This document shows, one piece after another, positions 43,859 through 49,492 of a stretch of DNA of 50,285 bases (positions are counted from its first letter, which is position 1; each line of letters starts with the position of its first letter). Source of the stretch: Candidatus Eiseniibacteriota bacterium (GTDB taxonomy: Bacteria > Eisenbacteria > RBG-16-71-46). Where the stretch lies: the NCBI GenBank assembly GCA_041483195.1, contig JBGPFC010000030.1, positions 1 to 50,285 on the forward strand. Direction: 5' to 3'. Both the position numbers and the translations under genes were made by a program. Under the pieces are notes generated by a model. That model saw only the letters and a list, made by a program, of their open reading frames with translations, ran no database searches and was not told the DNA's origin.

Positions 43859-45250
43859 TTGCCGCTTCGCATCTACGACACCCTCGCCCGCGAGAAGCGA
43901 ACGTTCGTCCCGGTCGTCCCCGGGCGCGTCGGCATGTACGTCTGCGGGATGACCGTGCAGAACCGGCCTCACGTCGGGCACGTGCGCGCCTCGCTCTCGG
44001 GGGAGATCATGCGCCGCTACCTGGAGCGCCTCGGCTACGAGGTCGCGTACGTCTACAACTTCACGGACGTCGACGACAAGATCATCGAGCGCGCGGCCGC
44101 CGAGGGCGTCCCCTGGCAGCAGGTGAGCGAGCGCAACATCGACGCGTACTTTCGCGCGGCGGACGCATGCAACATCAAGCGCGCGACCGTGTATCCGCGC
44201 GCCACGCAGCACATCGCCGAGATGCACGCGATCATCGCGCGGCTGATCGAGAAGGGACACGCGTACGCGGCAGGCGGCGACGTCTACTTCGACGTCCGCA
44301 GCCGCGCGGACTACGGCAAGCTCTCGGGACGCCGGGTGGACGAGATGCGCGAGGGCTACCGCATCGAGCCGGGGGAGGCGAAGCGGGACCCGCTCGACTT
44401 CGCGCTGTGGAAGGGCACCAAGCCGGGCGAGCCCTCCTGGGAGTCGCCGTGGGGACCGGGCCGGCCGGGCTGGCACATCGAGTGCTCGGCGATGGCGATG
44501 AAGTACCTGGGAGAGACCTTCGACATTCACGGCGGCGGGCAGGACCTCATCTTCCCGCACCACGAGAACGAGATCGCCCAGAGCGAGTCGTTCAGCGGGA
44601 GGCCATTCGCGAACTTCTGGACCGAGAACGGCATGGTCAATCTCGGCGGCGAGAAGATGTCGAAGAGCACGGGCAATCTCTTCTTCACGGACGACATCCT
44701 CGCGAGCGCGGATCCCGAGGTGGTGCGCTTCTACCTGCTCTCGACCCACTACCGCAGCCCGATCGATTTCACGCTCGAGCGTCTCGCGGAGGCCGCGGTC
44801 GCCTATCAGCGCCTGATCGTTCCGCTCGAGCGCGCCGAGGCGTGGACGGCGCAGGAGGGCGGCGCGGTGGGAGGATCGCTGGGCGAAGCGGTGGCCGGGG
44901 CGGAGCGACTGTTCGCCGAGTCCATGGACGACGACTTCAACAGCGCGAAGGCGATCGGTCACCTGTTCGATCTCGCTCGGGAGGTGAACCGCGCGCTCGA
45001 CGAAGGGCTGGGCTCCGAGGCCCGGGCGGCCGCCCGCCATCTGCTCGCCCTCGGCGGGGTGCTGGGTCTGTTCTGGAAGCCGCGGGCCGCCGAGCAGTGG
45101 GACCCCGAGCTGGTGGCGCTCGCAACGGCTCGCGAGGCGGCGCGGAAGGGTCGTGACTGGAAGCGGGCCGATGCGATCCGGGATCAGCTCGCCGAGCGCG
45201 GGGTGACGGTCGAAGACGGACCCGATGGCCCTCGGCTCCGGCGGAAGTAG
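43859..45250 (+). CDS. cysS: Cysteine--tRNA ligase
   Basis: [39 protein letters not shown] start after AAGGAG. Confidence 0.97.
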
Positions 45251-45447: not shown

Positions 45448-45477
45448 TTGACCGGGGTTCCCCGGCAGGCATAGCCT
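45448..45477 (+). promoter_or_regulatory. Putative sigma70 promoter for the small protein/activator pair
   Basis: TTGACC-N18-TAGCCT. Confidence 0.4.
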
Positions 45478-45630
45478 CAATGTGCGATCGGGCGTCGGCG
45501 TGCCAGGCCGAGAGGGATATCACCCCGTATCCAGCATCGCTCCCTCTGGCTTGCTTGACCGATGCCATCGTGCGTTTTTGGGGGCAGGTTGATCTGCTCC
45601 CGTGACCAAATAGGGACAGGAAGGAAAGTC

Positions 45631-45984
45631 ATGCCTCGATTCAATGCGAATCGCTGGTGGGCCTTCATCCTGGCGCTGAGCGTCAGTTTGACGTCCATCG
45701 CCGCGATGTCGCGACATGCGATTGCTGGCGTCCGCATGGGCGAAGGCGGCGGCGGAACAATCACGACGGGTGATCCCGGCTTGCCGCCCCCTCCGGGGGC
45801 GGGCGATCCCGACATTCCTTTGCCTTCGAAGTCTTCGATCCCAAAGGTGTCGGCTCAACGGGGTGCTCAGACCATCGCTTCGGTGCGCGCTGTGGGTGAC
45901 GGCTCCGCGCCGAGCAGCAGCGTCATGATGTGGCGTCTCCAGGCCGTGCTGCAGAGCCTGAGGCTCTGGTTCGTTCGCTTCTAG
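45631..45984 (+). CDS. Small secreted Gly/Pro-rich protein (candidate signalling pre-peptide)
   Basis: AGGAAGG RBS; signal peptide ending AIA; GDPG/GDPD motifs; amphipathic C-terminal helix; 117 aa. Confidence 0.75.
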   Translation: MPRFNANRWWAFILALSVSLTSIAAMSRHAIAGVRMGEGGGGTITTGDPGLPPPPGAGDPDIPLPSKSSIPKVSAQRGAQTIASVRAVGDGSAPSSSVMMWRLQAVLQSLRLWFVRF

Positions 45985-46011
45985 GTTCTGCATGATCGGC
46001 GTAGTAGAAAC

Positions 46012-48438
46012 GTGGACCGGAGTTTCGGCGTGCCGAACTACGACCCGAATCGCATCGCACATCTCGAGGGGCGCCTCGCCGTAGTTCCCGAGGCGGCATT
46101 CGAGACCGCGCTCTCTGAGCTGGAGATGCTGGCGGACCTGTACATGCAGGCCGACAGCTATCTCCCCGCTCTGGAGACCATCGAGCGTCTGCTGTCGCTG
46201 CCCGCCGCGCGCACGCTTTCGTTCACGCGTCGCGCGGCGCTGGAGAGCAAGGCGGTCTCCTGCCGACTCGCGCAGGGGGACTGCCAGGCCGCGCTCGCCC
46301 AGTGCCGCGACCTGCTCCAATCCGAATCCTCGATCGAATCCATTCCGATCCGAGCCCGGTTGCATCTGCTGTGCGCCGATGCGCTCTTCATGCTGAGCCG
46401 GCTGGCCGACAGCCGGCACCACGCCGAGCGCGTGCTCACGATGGCGGACGCGAGCGGCGATCTGGTGCTGTCCGCCGCCGCGCTCAATCATCTCGGCCGC
46501 ATCACGTATCGCGAGGGCGAGCTGCTGCGCGCGCGGGACCTGTACGAGCAGGCGCTGGCGCTCTATCGCAGACTGGGCGACGAGTTCAGCGCGGCACGGG
46601 TGCGGAACAACATCGGACTCATTCAGAAGAATCTCTGCGAGTGGGACTCGGCGATCGCGCACCTGACCTCCGCGCTCGAGATCTTCCGCAAGCTGGGGCG
46701 CCTGCCGGAGACCGGCCCCGCGCTCATGAACCTCGGCATCGTCTACCAGAAGAGCGGCGACTGGGTGCGGGCCGACGAGTGTTACCGCGGCGCCGAGGAG
46801 GTATTCCTTCAAATTTCCGACCACCTGCACCTGGCGCAGGTGGGCATCGGGCGCGGCAACGTGGCGCGCCTGCAGCGCCGCTTCGTCGACGCGGAGACCG
46901 CGCTGTTCGCGGCCCTCGACCGCGCACGCTCCCACGACGCGCAGCGCGAAGAGGTGCTGGCCCTGGAATTTCTTGGCGAGCTCGACGCCGATCGCGGCCG
47001 GCCGGAAAGCGCGCTCGCGCGCTATCACGAGGCGCTGGCGCTGGCGGAGCGGGTCGCGCCCGAGGGCGACCTGGTGGTGGAGCTGGAGCGCCGCCGGGCC
47101 GAGGCGCTGTGCGTGCTGCAGCGGCTCGACGACGCGGATCATGCCTGCGAGCGGGCGCGTCGGCTCGCGCGTCGCACCAACGATCGCCTCGAGAACGCGG
47201 TGAGTCACCGGGTGGCGGGTGAGATCGCATGGGCCAGGGGCCGTCGCGACGAAGCCGTGCAGAGCTGGAAGATCGCATCCTCGCTGCTCATGGACTGCCG
47301 CGAGCGCCTCGAGCTGGGGCGCACGCAGATGCTGCTGGGCCGCTCGAGCGGGGACCCTGCGGAAGCGCGGCGCCATTTCTACCGTGCGATCTCGTTGTTC
47401 GCGGAGCTCTCGACCCCCTACTGGATCGAGCAGGCGGAGTCCGAGCTGCAGCGCCTGATGGGCGCCCCCGGCGATCCCGCCCCGGTGCGCCCCGCGTCGC
47501 TGCTCGGCCGCCGGCACCGCGCGCCGAGCCTCGTTGCCTGCTCCCACGCGATGCGCCTGGTCGAGACCATGGCGCGCCGCGCCGCGAGCACGGAGCTTTC
47601 GGTCCTCATCACCGGCGAGACCGGGACCGGGAAGGAACTCGTCGCGCGCACCATTCACGTGCTTTCGCCGCGGGCGCCGCGACCGTTCCTCGCCGTGAAC
47701 TGCGGCGCGCTCCGCGCCGATCTCGCGCTGTCGCAGCTGTTCGGCCATCGCAAGGGGGCATTCACCGGCGCGCATGCCGAAGGCGTGGGGCTGGTCGAGG
47801 CCGCGCACTGCGGCACCCTGTTCCTCGACGAAGTGGGCGAGCTGCCGCACGACGTGCAGGTCACGATGCTGCGTTTCCTCGAGAGCGGCGAGTATCTTCG
47901 CCTCGGCGAGACGCAGGTGCGCCGCGCCGATGTGCGCGTGATCGCGGCGACCAATCGCGAGCTGAGGAGCGACGACGGCGAGCGGGCGTTCCGGCGCGAC
48001 CTGCTCTATCGCCTGAACGAGATCGAGATCCGGTTGCCGTCCCTGCGCGAGCGCGCCGACGACATCGCGCCGCTGGCGCGTCACTTCCTCGCGTTCTACG
48101 GCGGGCTCGAGGGACCGCAGCTCTCGCCCGACGCGGAGAGCGTCCTGCTCGCGTACGAGTGGCCGGGCAACGTCCGCGAGCTCGAGAACGTGATGAAGCG
48201 CATCGCGGCGCTGCACGCCGGGGACCGCATGCTCTCGGGCGCCGACCTGGTGCCGTTCCTCTCGAACGAGCGCAGCGCGCGTCCCGCGTCGTCCTCGGCG
48301 GAGCCCGACGAGCGGGCCGCGATCCTCGCAGCTTACGCGGTGTCGCACGGCAACAAGAGCCGGCTCGCCGCGCTGCTCGGCGTCAGCCGGAAGACGCTCT
48401 ACGCGCGGCTCAAGCGCTACTCGATCGATCTCCCCTGA
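46012..48438 (+). CDS. TPR-domain sigma54-dependent enhancer-binding protein
   Basis: Long N-terminal TPR array; GETGTGKE, intact GAFTGA, LFLDEVGE, WPGNVRELEN; Fis-type HTH; no receiver domain. Confidence 0.94.
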   Translation: MDRSFGVPNYDPNRIAHLEGRLAVVPEAAFETALSELEMLADLYMQADSYLPALETIERLLSLPAARTLSFTRRAALESKAVSCRLAQGDCQAALAQCRDLLQSESSIESIPIRARLHLLCADALFMLSRLADSRHHAERVLTMADASGDLVLSAAALNHLGRITYREGELLRARDLYEQALALYRRLGDEFSAARVRNNIGLIQKNLCEWDSAIAHLTSALEIFRKLGRLPETGPALMNLGIVYQKSGDWVRADECYRGAEEVFLQISDHLHLAQVGIGRGNVARLQRRFVDAETALFAALDRARSHDAQREEVLALEFLGELDADRGRPESALARYHEALALAERVAPEGDLVVELERRRAEALCVLQRLDDADHACERARRLARRTNDRLENAVSHRVAGEIAWARGRRDEAVQSWKIASSLLMDCRERLELGRTQMLLGRSSGDPAEARRHFYRAISLFAELSTPYWIEQAESELQRLMGAPGDPAPVRPASLLGRRHRAPSLVACSHAMRLVETMARRAASTELSVLITGETGTGKELVARTIHVLSPRAPRPFLAVNCGALRADLALSQLFGHRKGAFTGAHAEGVGLVEAAHCGTLFLDEVGELPHDVQVTMLRFLESGEYLRLGETQVRRADVRVIAATNRELRSDDGERAFRRDLLYRLNEIEIRLPSLRERADDIAPLARHFLAFYGGLEGPQLSPDAESVLLAYEWPGNVRELENVMKRIAALHAGDRMLSGADLVPFLSNERSARPASSSAEPDERAAILAAYAVSHGNKSRLAALLGVSRKTLYARLKRYSIDLP

Positions 48439-48454
48439 GGCGCTGACTTTCTTT

Positions 48455-48496
48455 CGGCGAGGGCGGAAGCGGTTGCTTCCGCCCTCGCCGCATTTT
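48455..48496 (+). terminator. Intrinsic terminator
   Basis: 16-bp perfect stem CGGCGAGGGCGGAAGC-GGTT-GCTTCCGCCCTCGCCG followed by CATTTT. Confidence 0.8.
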
Positions 48497-48521
48497 CAGC
48501 GCTTCGAGCGGCGCACGCGAC

Positions 48522-48632
48522 GGTGACCCCATGTCACCCTGTTACCCGACCGTAACAGGATCCCTATCCCGCTCGCGGGCCTCGAGTAAGCGCGAAGTTC
48601 GACGGCGTGGGGCTGTTAACCTCGCGGTGACA
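48522..48632. promoter_or_regulatory. Putative upstream activator (enhancer) sites
   Basis: GGTGAC-N5-GTCACC (48522-48538), CCTGTTAC-N6-GTAACAGG (48538-48559) and TGTTA-N9-TGACA (48614-48632). Confidence 0.55.
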
Positions 48633-48749
48633 CTTCTGCCTCCGAGTCGAATCCGGCTCACTCCCCCCGATGATCGAGGCGCGTGAAAGGCATTGTGCCG
48701 CAATGCATCGGCGGCCATTCGACCCGCGCACCGCGAGACGGGGTCACGC

Positions 48750-48765
48750 TGGCATGCAGGGTGCA
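48750..48765 (+). promoter_or_regulatory. Sigma54 (-24/-12) promoter
   Basis: TGGCATGCAGGGTGCA: GG at 48751-52, 10-nt spacer, GC at 48763-64; close to the TGGCACG-N4-TTGC consensus. Confidence 0.7.
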
Positions 48766-48775
48766 ATGGGAATGT

Positions 48776-49230
48776 CACGGATACGGGTACAGGCCGAAAG
48801 GCCTGAGTACAGCAGTTCGGAGCGGAGTCTCCTCAAGGGGAGAGGAACTCAAGACCGCAGGGTGGCCCGTGTGCAGTTCAGCACCTCCATCCGCACATGC
48901 CGGTCGCCCTCGGTCGGCTCCGAAGCAAGTGGTTGAACACGAAGCGAAGTCGGGCGGGAAGCCGCCCGGGGGCTCGTACCCTGAGGTTAGCCGCTGAAAC
49001 GAATTCAGCGGCCCAGCTCGAAAGGGGTGAGAGCAACTCAAGTCGGATCAGAGCAGTCTGGTGAGAAGTGAGTAGTGGTTCGCAGATCGACACAAAAAAA
49101 CCTAATACGCCCGGTCAACGAAGCCGGGAGAGCAGTGGGGTTCATCCCGGTCACTCCCTGTTCTCTCGGGAAGAGGCAGCCAGAGGTTACGGGAAGGAGA
49201 GTCCTTCCGTACCACTCTAGGCTGCCTTTT
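48776..49230 (+). ncRNA. Putative large structured ncRNA (~450 nt), family not recognised
   Basis: Starts at the predicted sigma54 TSS; at least 8 helices including a GAAA tetraloop and nested long-range pairings; ends in a stem plus TTTT; no convincing CDS. Confidence 0.65.
49174..49230 (+). terminator. Terminal stem/terminator of the putative ncRNA
   Basis: AGGCAGCC/GGCTGCCT enclosing TACGGGAAGGA/TCCTTCCGTA, followed by a T-run. Confidence 0.6.
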
Positions 49231-49316
49231 CGATTGTGGTCGCGAGGGCGCGCGCCGGCGCGCCGGACATTCCAGGCCGCCGGGCGCGGGGCGCATGGGG
49301 CGCGGGCCCGTCCTGC

Positions 49317-49345
49317 TTGACAGCCCATCGGCGGCTGACTATTTT
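49317..49345 (+). promoter_or_regulatory. Sigma70 promoter of the tRNA cluster
   Basis: TTGACA-N17-TATTTT. Confidence 0.65.
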
Positions 49346-49374
49346 GGCCTTGTTCCCCCGCGAGATACTGCTCC

Positions 49375-49447
49375 GCTGGCGTAGCTCAATTGGTAGAGCA
49401 TCTCATTTGTAATGAGGTGGTTGGGGGTTCGAGTCCCTTCGCCAGCT
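49375..49447 (+). tRNA. tRNA-Thr(TGT)
   Basis: Cloverleaf; anticodon loop TTTGTAA; TTCGAGT T-loop; CCA not encoded. Confidence 0.95.
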
Positions 49448-49492
49448 TGCTTACCCGCCGCCGAGCGGGATGATGGGTCGCCTGAATTTCGT

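Follow-up and report, generated by a model that had tools for sequence, protein, structure and literature searches.

The DNA analysed here, called the window below, is a stretch of 50,285 nt (contig C30) from genome G000, a 4.17-Mb, 96.8% complete metagenome-assembled genome (MAG) of an uncultured soil Candidatus Eisenbacteria. Between cysS (43859-45250) and a tRNA-Thr/Tyr/Gly/Thr-tuf cluster (from 49375), it contains in this order a sigma-70-type promoter, a leader hairpin, a small open reading frame (ORF), the gene of a sigma-54 activator with a tetratricopeptide repeat (TPR) domain, a terminator, two inverted repeats, a sigma-54 promoter and an RNA gene. We estimate at roughly 0.6 the probability that these parts make up a dedicated sigma-54 circuit of Candidatus Eisenbacteria, in which the small protein and the TPR activator would lead to an RNA with feedback on the activator operon. 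The features of the module, and the promoter that bounds it on the 3′ side, are as follows.

45448..45477, + strand: sigma-70-type promoter of the operon, −35 TTGACC at 45448-45453 and −10 TAGCCT at 45472-45477, predicted start ~45484
45484..45571, + strand: 5′ leader hairpin followed by GUUUUU, attenuator-like; folding of 45484-45665 puts the hairpin at the 5′ end
45487-45496, + strand: mRNA 5′ element GAUCGGGCGU, complementary to box 1 of the RNA
45520..45532, + strand: leader loop motif UCACCCCGUAUCC, ~108 nt before the start codon of the small ORF
45631..45984, + strand: gene of a 117-aa protein with signal-peptide-like N-terminus, GDPDxP motif and C-terminal amphipathic helix ending in RF (from hidden Markov model [HMM] and alignment)
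46012..48438, + strand: gene of an 808-aa sigma-54 enhancer-binding protein with TPR superhelix (~residues 10-480), AAA+ domain with GAFTGA, AAA lid and HTH_8 (from Pfam)
48455..48497, + strand: intrinsic terminator of the operon, a 16-bp perfect inverted repeat with 4-nt loop, then CATTTTC
48540..48557, no strand: putative upstream activator site 1, TGTTACC-N4-GGTAACA, TGTTACCCGACCGTAACA, ~225 nt 5′ of the promoter's 3′ end
~48614..48632, no strand: putative upstream activator site 2, TGTTAAC-N5-GGTGACA, TGTTAACCTCGCGGTGACA, imperfect, ~153 nt 5′ of the promoter's 3′ end (window copy read by eye; one extra base)
48750..48765, + strand: predicted sigma-54 promoter TGGCATGCAGGGTGCA, predicted transcript start ~48776
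48776..49232, + strand: predicted stand-alone structured non-coding RNA, ~457 nt, with own promoter, own terminator and covariation
48779-48787, + strand: 5′ seed of the RNA, GGAUACGGG
49110-49117, + strand: box 1 of the RNA, CCCGGUCA
49124-49169, + strand: covarying hairpin of the RNA, with box 2, CCCGGUCA, at 49146-49153 in its loop
49171-49181/49220-49230, + strand: terminator stem of the RNA, hairpin GGCAGCC...GGCUGCC then UUUUC
49317..49345, + strand: sigma-70 promoter TTGACA-17-TATTTT serving the tRNA-Thr/Tyr/Gly/Thr-tuf cluster on its own, outside the module, whose 3′ limit it marks

Conservation of the module

The original prediction had described a candidate module of secreted peptide, TPR activator and large non-coding RNA beginning at 45448, which proves to be the −35 box of the conserved sigma-70-type promoter, and all the elements that it named are present in the sequence at or near the positions it gave, including the palindromic sites and the terminator after the activator. 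Its proposal that the three parts form one conserved module agrees with conservation and covariation beyond chance in 43 related genomes, and its impression of an undescribed system held up, with no match in Rfam, NCBIfam equivalogs or the literature searched; a full-text search returned no description of the module, as judged from titles and abstract openings. The earlier interpretation is thus partly supported: the architecture, one module and a new system, was right, and the peptide and quorum-sensing part, taken up below, is unproven.

All comparative counts come from kin MAGs. DNA matches to the 841-nt spacer were obtained in 34 of 41 related genomes (family f1 23/24, f3 9/10, f2 1/3 and weak, three other families 0/3), the C-terminus of the activator lay directly 5′ of the RNA match in 20/20 loci returned, and the tRNA cluster followed the RNA in most of those 20. 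When the loci were extended, cysS, small ORF and activator occurred in that order in 20/20; tblastn (E ≤ 1e-4) detected the small ORF in 19 of them, and the weakest, L038, was recovered by HMM. A scan with the TPR-domain alignment, one genome per species, gave 66 loci, of which 54 at 55-85% identity were nearly all from Candidatus Eisenbacteria and 12 at 24-32% were TPR-only and from other phyla. Among the 54 close loci, the HMM placed the small ORF directly 5′ of the activator on the same strand in all 53 with upstream DNA (L087, which has none, was excluded), and it had no match in the 12 outgroup loci. With an nhmmer profile, the RNA was detected 3′ of the activator in 43 of the 54. The remaining 11 break off within the activator gene or no more than 359 nt beyond it, so that every locus able to show the RNA (at least 760 nt after the activator) has it, 43/43, one of the 43 (L069) being cut by the contig end. 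In five loci at least (L050, L051, L073, L082 and L083), over 2.4 kb of downstream DNA contains no tRNA after the RNA, and therefore the RNA travels with the activator, not with the tRNAs. Genome G015 carries two full copies of the cassette (L030/L051 and L041/L083, on contigs C3 and C6; partial cysS, small ORF, activator and RNA).

Some irregularities were also seen. The activator match of the second G015 copy is split in two, with an overlap between the parts that points to a frameshift or an error of assembly, and tblastn splits the activators of L025 and L031 into two or three frames, probably by assembly frameshifts rather than as pseudogenes. In L018, L019, L010, L016 and other loci with spacers of 1.1-1.7 kb, an extra signal-peptide gene lies between the RNA terminator and the tRNA cluster.

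Searching 151 sampled genomes of the phylum with a covariance model built on the 3′ domain of the RNA gave matches in 58 (f1 50/59, f3 6/6, f2 0/3); the 83 genomes of all other families contributed 1, which is weak and lies on a different contig from the best TPR-activator match in its genome. Nine f1 genomes gave no match; they are MAGs 80-99% complete. TPR profile scores were 650-850 bits in f1, ~400-420 in f3, and 260-330 on ~830-aa frames in f12, f10, f5 and f4. A class of ~1050-aa proteins in many genomes of the phylum also carries the TPR domain, at a lower score of 200-245 bits.

Analysis of 13 distant loci revealed that f3 activators are 48% identical over their full length to that of the window and the others 34-36%; statements on f3 rest on L125 (genome G026, marked unpublished), L126 and L127. 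A signal-peptide ORF with a similar C-terminal helix lies directly 5′ of the activator in 13/13, with GDPD as its motif in f3, f12, f5 and f4 and SPDETLNPPP in f10, and in the ten non-f3 loci neither cysS nor tRNAs are neighbours; the pair of small ORF and activator is therefore phylum-wide and independent of the surrounding genes. The original prediction had expected homologous activators to be accompanied by both the small ORF and the downstream promoter and RNA. This held throughout the two families of the RNA itself (small ORF 53/53, RNA 43/43) and, for the small ORF, in the distant families, where a sigma-54-like promoter with a short terminator-ended non-coding stretch was found in 6 of the 10 non-f3 loci (L117, L115/L116, L122-L124) and missing from 4. 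From these sequences, an adjacent sigma-54 RNA gene appears frequent, not universal, in this small sample of distant loci. The f3 and L089 RNAs are shorter forms that keep the 3′ domain and have lost the 5′ domain.

Rfam matched only tRNAs in the distant loci, and the RNA-like stretches downstream were unmatched. In f10 (L122-L124; activators at 35-36% identity), a conserved element of ~135-250 nt lies ~270-560 nt past the stop; GTGTGACAT-type repeats precede it, as does a CGGCAC-N5-ATGCW promoter. The element has no Rfam match, and its core, GGGCCGCGGA..GAUGGGGAGCUCUCAG..GGACAUAAAGGCUCC..CUGGGUGCCUC..GUCCGCGACCC, closes on itself. In f12 (L115, L116) and f5 (L117), the stretches are ~130 nt long and terminator-ended, 140-520 nt past the activator stop, with the sigma-54-like promoters GGGTAC-N5-YTGCA in f12 and TGGCACGGCCTATGCT in f5, and the two f12 copies have GGAACGAGGUCA and CAGGCAGGCGUCG in common.

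A sigma-54 promoter and a large structured RNA

The predicted GG-N10-GC promoter (GG at 48751-2, GC at 48763-4) recurs as TGGCAY-N5-NTGCW in 19 of the first 20 loci, 250-420 nt after the activator stop (939 nt in L020), and is missing in L014. A strict promoter followed by GGNYACGG within 29 nt was present in 34/43 loci, and the promoter start lies at a constant 28-30 nt 5′ of the conserved CGGAUACGGGG. Upstream of it, GTYAC-N3-14-GTRAC was found at −250 to −200 in 30/43 loci and at −165 to −135 in 31/43 (both in 24, either in 37), out of 82 occurrences in total over the 424 kb of these loci. The longer pattern TGTYAC-N5-12-GTRACA has a single occurrence in the 4.17-Mb genome, at site 1, and this uniqueness fits a dedicated activator with a single target. 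The genome is sigma-54-rich, with 26 Sigma54_activat matches representing ~22 full-length activators, and rpoN is present (Sigma54_DBD, 3e-63, contig C41). The arrangement suggests that the activator of this locus, rather than another of the ~22, fires the sigma-54 promoter, and that it binds the two inverted repeats. In cysS, TGGCACATCGAGTGCT, which encodes a conserved WHIEC (L043:392, L045:3076, L058:2909), mimics the sigma-54 pattern and was a recurrent false positive.

The ~450-nt structured non-coding stretch of the original prediction corresponds to 48776 to ~49232. Folding of 48776-49300 gave a minimum free energy (MFE) of −261.8 kcal/mol versus −213.5 ± 8.5 kcal/mol for 100 shuffles (z = −5.68; 0/100 as good). 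With the 4227 models of Rfam, only four tRNAs reached threshold in the window, no match in 48500-49340 exceeded 18.4 bits, versus gathering scores of at least 50, and none was credible in 48300-49450. RNAalifold on the 43-sequence alignment (A3) returned 38 pairs, 18 of them with both sides changed in at least one sequence. In the 3′ 150 nt (alignment A5, 39 sequences), 96.6% of 1053 cells are paired and 14 of 27 pairs, in 48 cells, are compensated; none of 500 shuffles reached any of these measures, and slid controls paired 38-55%. The terminator stem also shows compensatory changes. As for coding capacity, 23 of the 43 RNAs have stops in all three frames across a 150-nt core; in the remaining ones the open frame differs between RNAs and single-base gaps are common, so that there is no conserved reading frame. 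A promoter, an intrinsic terminator, covarying helices and the lack of a conserved frame together point to a stand-alone non-coding RNA gene, which is single-copy in each genome apart from the two whole cassettes of G015.

The conserved blocks of the RNA comprise the 5′ CGGAUACGGGG, then GCACCUCCAUC, GGGGCUCGUACCC, GAAAGGGGUGAGAG and an A-rich linker. The box 1 block AAUACGCCCGGUCAACGAAG is invariant, as part of 21 unchanging nt around box 1, and CCCGGUC is repeated in the hairpin loop as box 2. At 48880-48900 and 49020-49035, a near-invariant anti-Shine-Dalgarno-like GCACCUCCAUC lies in a hairpin loop, along with a Shine-Dalgarno-like GAAAGGGGUGAGAG and a GGGGGA loop; conceivable partners of these motifs are one another, ribosomal RNA or mRNAs, and GCACCUCCAUC/GAAAGGGGUGA is a candidate long-range pairing inspected by eye on A3. 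In the RNAs of L072 and L081, the GGGGCUCGUACCC block is tandemly duplicated with an inserted hairpin (A3 columns 328-395).

The position of the stretch directly upstream of tRNA-Thr/Tyr/Gly/Thr-tuf in most genomes would also be expected of a cis-acting leader or processing element of that operon. We regard this as very improbable, as we do a divergent RNase P RNA or transfer-messenger RNA (tmRNA): the RNA has its own terminator with compensatory changes in the stem, the tRNA cluster has its own promoter (TTGACA-17-TATTTT), and no tRNA follows in the loci named above. The true RNase P RNA was found on contig C9 (263 bits), which led to rejection of that identity; tmRNA was rejected on ARAGORN and Rfam, neither of which found one in the window, and the one 'tmRNA' that ARAGORN reported, in L015, was set aside, as it coincides with tRNA genes.

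In size and conservation the RNA goes well beyond what pairing with an mRNA demands, and it is likely to have a second function, such as protein binding or a role as a ribonucleoprotein scaffold. It is possible, though we would not expect it, that such a function is the main one, with the RNA acting as a sponge or scaffold like CrcZ, RsmZ or 6S, the two single-stranded CCCGGUCA boxes and the A-rich linker serving as binding sites, and feedback secondary or absent. The ~457 nt with many conserved helices and invariant single-stranded blocks exceed what a seed requires, the gene is single-copy per genome, and the short forms in f3 and L089 keep the 3′ domain but not the 5′ domain. However, the analysis brought up no candidate for a partner protein, Hfq had no match in the genome, and the compensatory changes between seed and leader loop described below would go unexplained. 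A protein-binding role is compatible with the feedback circuit, not exclusive of it.

Complementarity of the RNA to the operon leader

CTTGACC-N17-18-TAGCCT was found at a fixed 70-80 nt 5′ of the leader loop motif in 44/47 loci, a spacing that puts the beginning of the leader hairpin only a few bases into the predicted mRNA. The core of the loop motif is the exact complement of the RNA 5′ end GGAUACGGGG. By a strict pattern the motif was recognised in 36 of 42 leaders, and the best ungapped complement of each genome's own 12-nt seed was the leader-loop motif in 33 of 42 genomes. Across 36 genomes, 98.5% of 324 seed/loop cells are paired, and in 4 cells both sides have changed with the pair kept; shuffling the leaders among genomes reached the observed pairing once in 2000 trials. 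The double changes are in L047 (GGGUACGGG / CCCGUACCC), twice in L067 (GGGCACGGG / CCCGUGCCC) and in L093 (AGAUACGGG / CCCGUAUCU), and L090 has a matching one-base-shorter (indel) variant in seed and loop. Family f3 has a pair of its own, GGGUACGGGU / ACCCGUACCC, with 12/12 positions paired in L125 and 10/10 in L127, and one-sided changes inside the duplex give G.U pairs (L064, L085). The RNA therefore has the property of a base-pairing RNA, a conserved complementarity to a target mRNA that is kept by compensatory change.

Nearly all of 45 leaders fold into a long hairpin with the motif in its apical loop, and the stem sequences differ between genomes. RNAalifold on a MAFFT alignment of the leaders returned no pairs, because the stems are not column-aligned, and per-sequence folds were used instead: mean MFE was −27.5 kcal/mol versus −18.7 kcal/mol with shuffled flanks (45 leaders), and 24/45 leaders, versus 165/900 shuffles, had a loop of at most 30 nt closed by 5 or more contiguous pairs. 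A second complementarity connects box 1 with the mRNA 5′ element. It extends over at least 7 nt in 35/44 leaders and over at least 8 nt in 22/44; of 1320 background windows, 20% and 8.5%, respectively, reach these lengths. Further targets were sought as exact seed complements, CCCCGTATCC, and rejected: the 7 genomic occurrences are about what chance gives, and the six others lie in long frames without a hairpin.

Several observations weigh against a feedback RNA, or against the strength of the comparison. The seed deviates without a matching leader in L056, L079 and L080, L049 has one U.U mismatch, and in L126 no seed complement was found (apparent mismatches in L088 are an artefact, its row in the leader alignment being a wrong region). 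Only 23 of 45 genomes have a run of four or more T after the leader hairpin. RNAduplex energies of seed and leader, −27.7 kcal/mol for real versus −25.8 kcal/mol for shuffled leaders, are not separated in this GC-rich DNA. Because box 1 is invariant, covariation supports neither its pairing with the mRNA nor the predicted helix between it and the 5′ end of the RNA. The transcript ends of the RNA are predictions from sequence, Hfq (PF17209) had no match in the MAG, although at 96.8% completeness this is no proof of absence, and other genes, with no RNA, lie directly downstream of the activator in four of the ten distant loci (L118-L121). Finally, the locus counts are not independent, because the genomes are related.

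In addition, compensatory changes between seed and loop would be expected if both were copies of one protein's DNA site, namely GGATACGGGG just after the sigma-54 start and CCCCGTATCC in the leader. The motifs are exact inverted copies that change together (L047, L067, L093, f3), as they would under a shift in protein specificity, and the duplex energy test is uninformative here. We nevertheless hold this explanation to be quite unlikely: the leader copy sits in a hairpin loop whose stems vary in sequence yet keep pairing, the other copy begins ~3 nt into the predicted transcript, where a seed would typically be expected, the one-sided changes are transitions that give G.U on the transcribed strand (L064, L085), and the second complementarity links box 1 to the mRNA 5′ end. 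The complementarity of the RNA 5′ end to the activator-operon leader rather suggests feedback as in Qrr-luxO, in which case the RNA would be more than an output.

The activator, its small partner and the proposed circuit

Pfam analysis of the activator revealed TPR_12 in four stretches, Sigma54_activat (PF00158, 5.1e-60, residues 509-673), AAA_lid_14 and HTH_8 (3e-10), and its translation retains an intact Walker A GETGTGKE and an intact GAFTGA, the latter as the original prediction had read it; neither translation nor Pfam indicates a membrane segment, and there is no receiver domain. The AAA+ domain with GAFTGA and Fis-type helix-turn-helix (HTH), together with the upstream inverted repeats, rpoN and the −24/−12 promoter, identify it as an enhancer-binding protein. 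It fell below the cut-offs of all NCBIfam equivalogs (NtrC, RtcR, NifA, NorR, LuxO, PspF and others; best NtrC, 277 bits versus 558.6), whose partial matches cover the AAA+/HTH part only. Of 499 relatives at E ≤ 1e-5, the 120 listed have ~800 aa and generic names. AlphaFold2 (18 sequences) modelled the TPR domain as ~12 helical hairpins with a predicted local distance difference test (pLDDT) score of 91.8, and the best solved matches in Foldseek were TSK, LGN/Pins complexes with extended peptides, OGT, SPY and APC/C; no RRNPP receptor was among the top PDB matches listed, out of at least 500. The modelled fold resembles LGN/OGT-type superhelices and is compatible with binding of an extended peptide or protein segment; it does not assign the activator to the RRNPP family.

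The 117-aa protein, with GGAAGGAAAG as the ribosome-binding site of its ORF, has no Pfam or NCBIfam family and no named Atlas cluster, its Atlas matches being 'hypothetical protein' clusters only, all of the same phylum. Its basic N-terminus, hydrophobic core and AxA-type site suggest that it is exported, in line with the secreted protein first proposed. In 44 sequences (mean identity 37%), the only invariant columns are M1, R3, G58, D59, P60, D61 and P63; all have an AxA-type site after a hydrophobic segment, and in most the C-terminal amphipathic helix has an aromatic residue at its end. The N-terminal segment MxRFxxNRWW.FILAL is strongly conserved in the two families that have the RNA. We infer that the TPR domain takes its input from the small protein. 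A complex prediction for the TPR domain (A2) with the small protein (A6) scored 0.01 against a mark of 0.32, which decides neither way.

How such an input might operate can be envisaged in two ways. Along the lines of the original prediction, the small protein would be exported and processed, and a GDPDxP or C-terminal-helix peptide would be re-imported and bound by the TPR domain, as in an RRNPP-like quorum sensor with the RNA as output. A signal-peptide ORF beside a cytoplasmic TPR sensor is indeed the RRNPP-type gene arrangement, the two genes are strictly co-inherited across the phylum even where other neighbours differ, the GDPDxP motif is invariant, and the closest solved relatives of the modelled superhelix, LGN/Pins and OGT, hold extended peptides in their groove. 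On the other hand, no RRNPP chain appeared among the top structural matches listed, the order of an N-terminal TPR and C-terminal AAA+/HTH is unlike that of RRNPP regulators, the host belongs to a candidate phylum and not to Firmicutes, and conserved parts are spread over the whole small protein rather than one short C-terminal peptide. We consider peptide re-import unlikely. Somewhat less doubtful, though still improbable, is a monitor of export or envelope, in which an un-exported precursor or membrane-retained form would bind the TPR domain in the cytoplasm and switch the activator, so that the RNA would be made when export or envelope is disturbed. The control of PspF by PspA and secretion monitors such as SecM are precedents. 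The N-terminal segment in the two RNA-bearing families is far more conserved than usual signal peptides, and an activator without a membrane segment can meet only a cytoplasmic form; however, distant families do not keep the N-terminal motif, whereas GDPD/SPDE and the C-terminal helix are kept. Also in favour of a monitor, sigma-54 regulons often serve the cell exterior (compare PMC3162934).

The circuit that we favour, with feedback from the RNA on the activator operon, can be described in three steps. First, the sigma-70-type promoter would transcribe an operon for the small exported GDPDxP protein and the cytoplasmic TPR-AAA+-HTH activator. Second, the active activator would bind the two inverted repeats that lie some 235 and 160 nt 5′ of the −24/−12 promoter and drive one target only, the ~457-nt highly structured, terminator-ended RNA. 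Third, the 5′ end of the RNA, GGAUACGGGG, would form a duplex with CCCCGUAUCC, the apical-loop sequence of the hairpin in the operon mRNA leader, and the base of that hairpin offers in its 5′ strand a possible partner for the invariant box 1, UACGCCCGG; by invading the hairpin at the loop and 5′ strand, the RNA may alter termination or stability of the operon mRNA. Because a U-run follows the hairpin in about half of the genomes, pairing would most likely open an attenuator or alter mRNA stability, and the feedback could be of either sign. Comparative sequence analysis establishes the parts, their order and co-inheritance, the covariation of the RNA, and the seed-loop complementarity with its compensatory changes, on which the steps are built.

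This circuit shares features with several known systems. In the quorum-sensing circuit of Vibrio, the sigma-54 activator LuxO drives the Qrr small RNAs, which also repress luxO mRNA (compare 10.1101/2021.07.01.450815). As there, a −24/−12 promoter with an upstream site would be served by an NtrC-family AAA+ activator that carries an HTH, and would direct the synthesis of a non-coding RNA; this RNA is complementary to its own activator's mRNA and would give feedback. LuxO is, however, a phosphorylated response regulator, whereas the present activator has a TPR superhelix and no receiver domain; Qrr RNAs are ~100 nt, Hfq-dependent and multi-copy, whereas the present RNA, ~457 nt long, is highly structured and has a single copy, and its genome gave no Hfq match; and the pairing site here is a 5′ leader hairpin loop, not the ribosome-binding site. 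CrcZ and GlmY are sigma-54-dependent protein-sequestering RNAs, and the CbrB-CrcZ system of Pseudomonas and the GlrR-GlmY system of Enterobacteria likewise combine a dedicated sigma-54 activator with a stand-alone RNA of several hundred nucleotides and repeated single-stranded motifs. CbrB and GlrR, in contrast, are two-component response regulators and not TPR proteins, and the present RNA has neither A-rich Hfq/Crc motif repeats nor a GlmY-like fold or Rfam match. PspA-PspF and other sigma-54 activators under the control of a partner resemble the present pair, in which a receiver-less activator is likewise encoded together with a small, envelope-related protein that might keep it inactive. 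A sensory domain is lacking in PspF, however, and the fold of PspA, a peripheral membrane protein, is known, whereas here there are ~12 TPR-like repeats and a partner of no known family.

The RRNPP regulators (Rap, NprR, PlcR, PrgX, AimR) share the cytoplasmic TPR-type sensor beside a small signal-peptide ORF, but have an N-terminal HTH or phosphatase output versus AAA+ sigma-54 here, where the small ORF is upstream and ~117 aa, the host is outside Firmicutes and the nearest listed folds are of LGN/OGT type. OLE, GOLLD, ROOL and raiA-type RNAs are alike in size class, dense conserved structure and narrow phylogenetic range; unlike them, this RNA has an identifiable dedicated promoter, activator and candidate target, and no Rfam match. 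In rhizobia, NtrBC and the trans-acting small RNA NfeR1 regulate each other in a double-negative feedback of a sigma-54 system (PMC10746234); it appears to differ in its class of activator, its short RNA and its lack of an adjacent secreted protein. Judged from sequence comparison, the system is thus probably a new large RNA family with a new class of TPR activators and an obligatory small exported partner, within the theme of sigma-54 activators and regulatory RNAs, with feedback on the activator operon. A broader version can be offered only tentatively, as a conjecture: a phylum-wide signalling cassette of a novel kind, in which the exported GDPDxP protein would report on the outside or on export to the TPR activator, whose sole target would be an adjacent RNA gene, grown in two families to a ~457-nt RNA that may open its own 5′ attenuator by two-site pairing and carry a second ribonucleoprotein or catalytic function.

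The locus adds a new family to the large structured RNAs of bacteria. In contrast to most of them, it arrives with a predicted promoter, a dedicated activator, putative enhancer sites and a candidate target of its own, so that both the regulation of the RNA and one function would be directly testable in a heterologous host. The activator represents an uncharacterised class of sigma-54 activators with a long TPR superhelix as sensor, always paired with a small exported protein, and may provide a new link from the cell exterior to sigma-54 transcription in a phylum without a cultured member. Should the seed-loop pairing be confirmed, this would be another sigma-54-dependent RNA feeding back on its activator, maybe through a 5′ attenuator.

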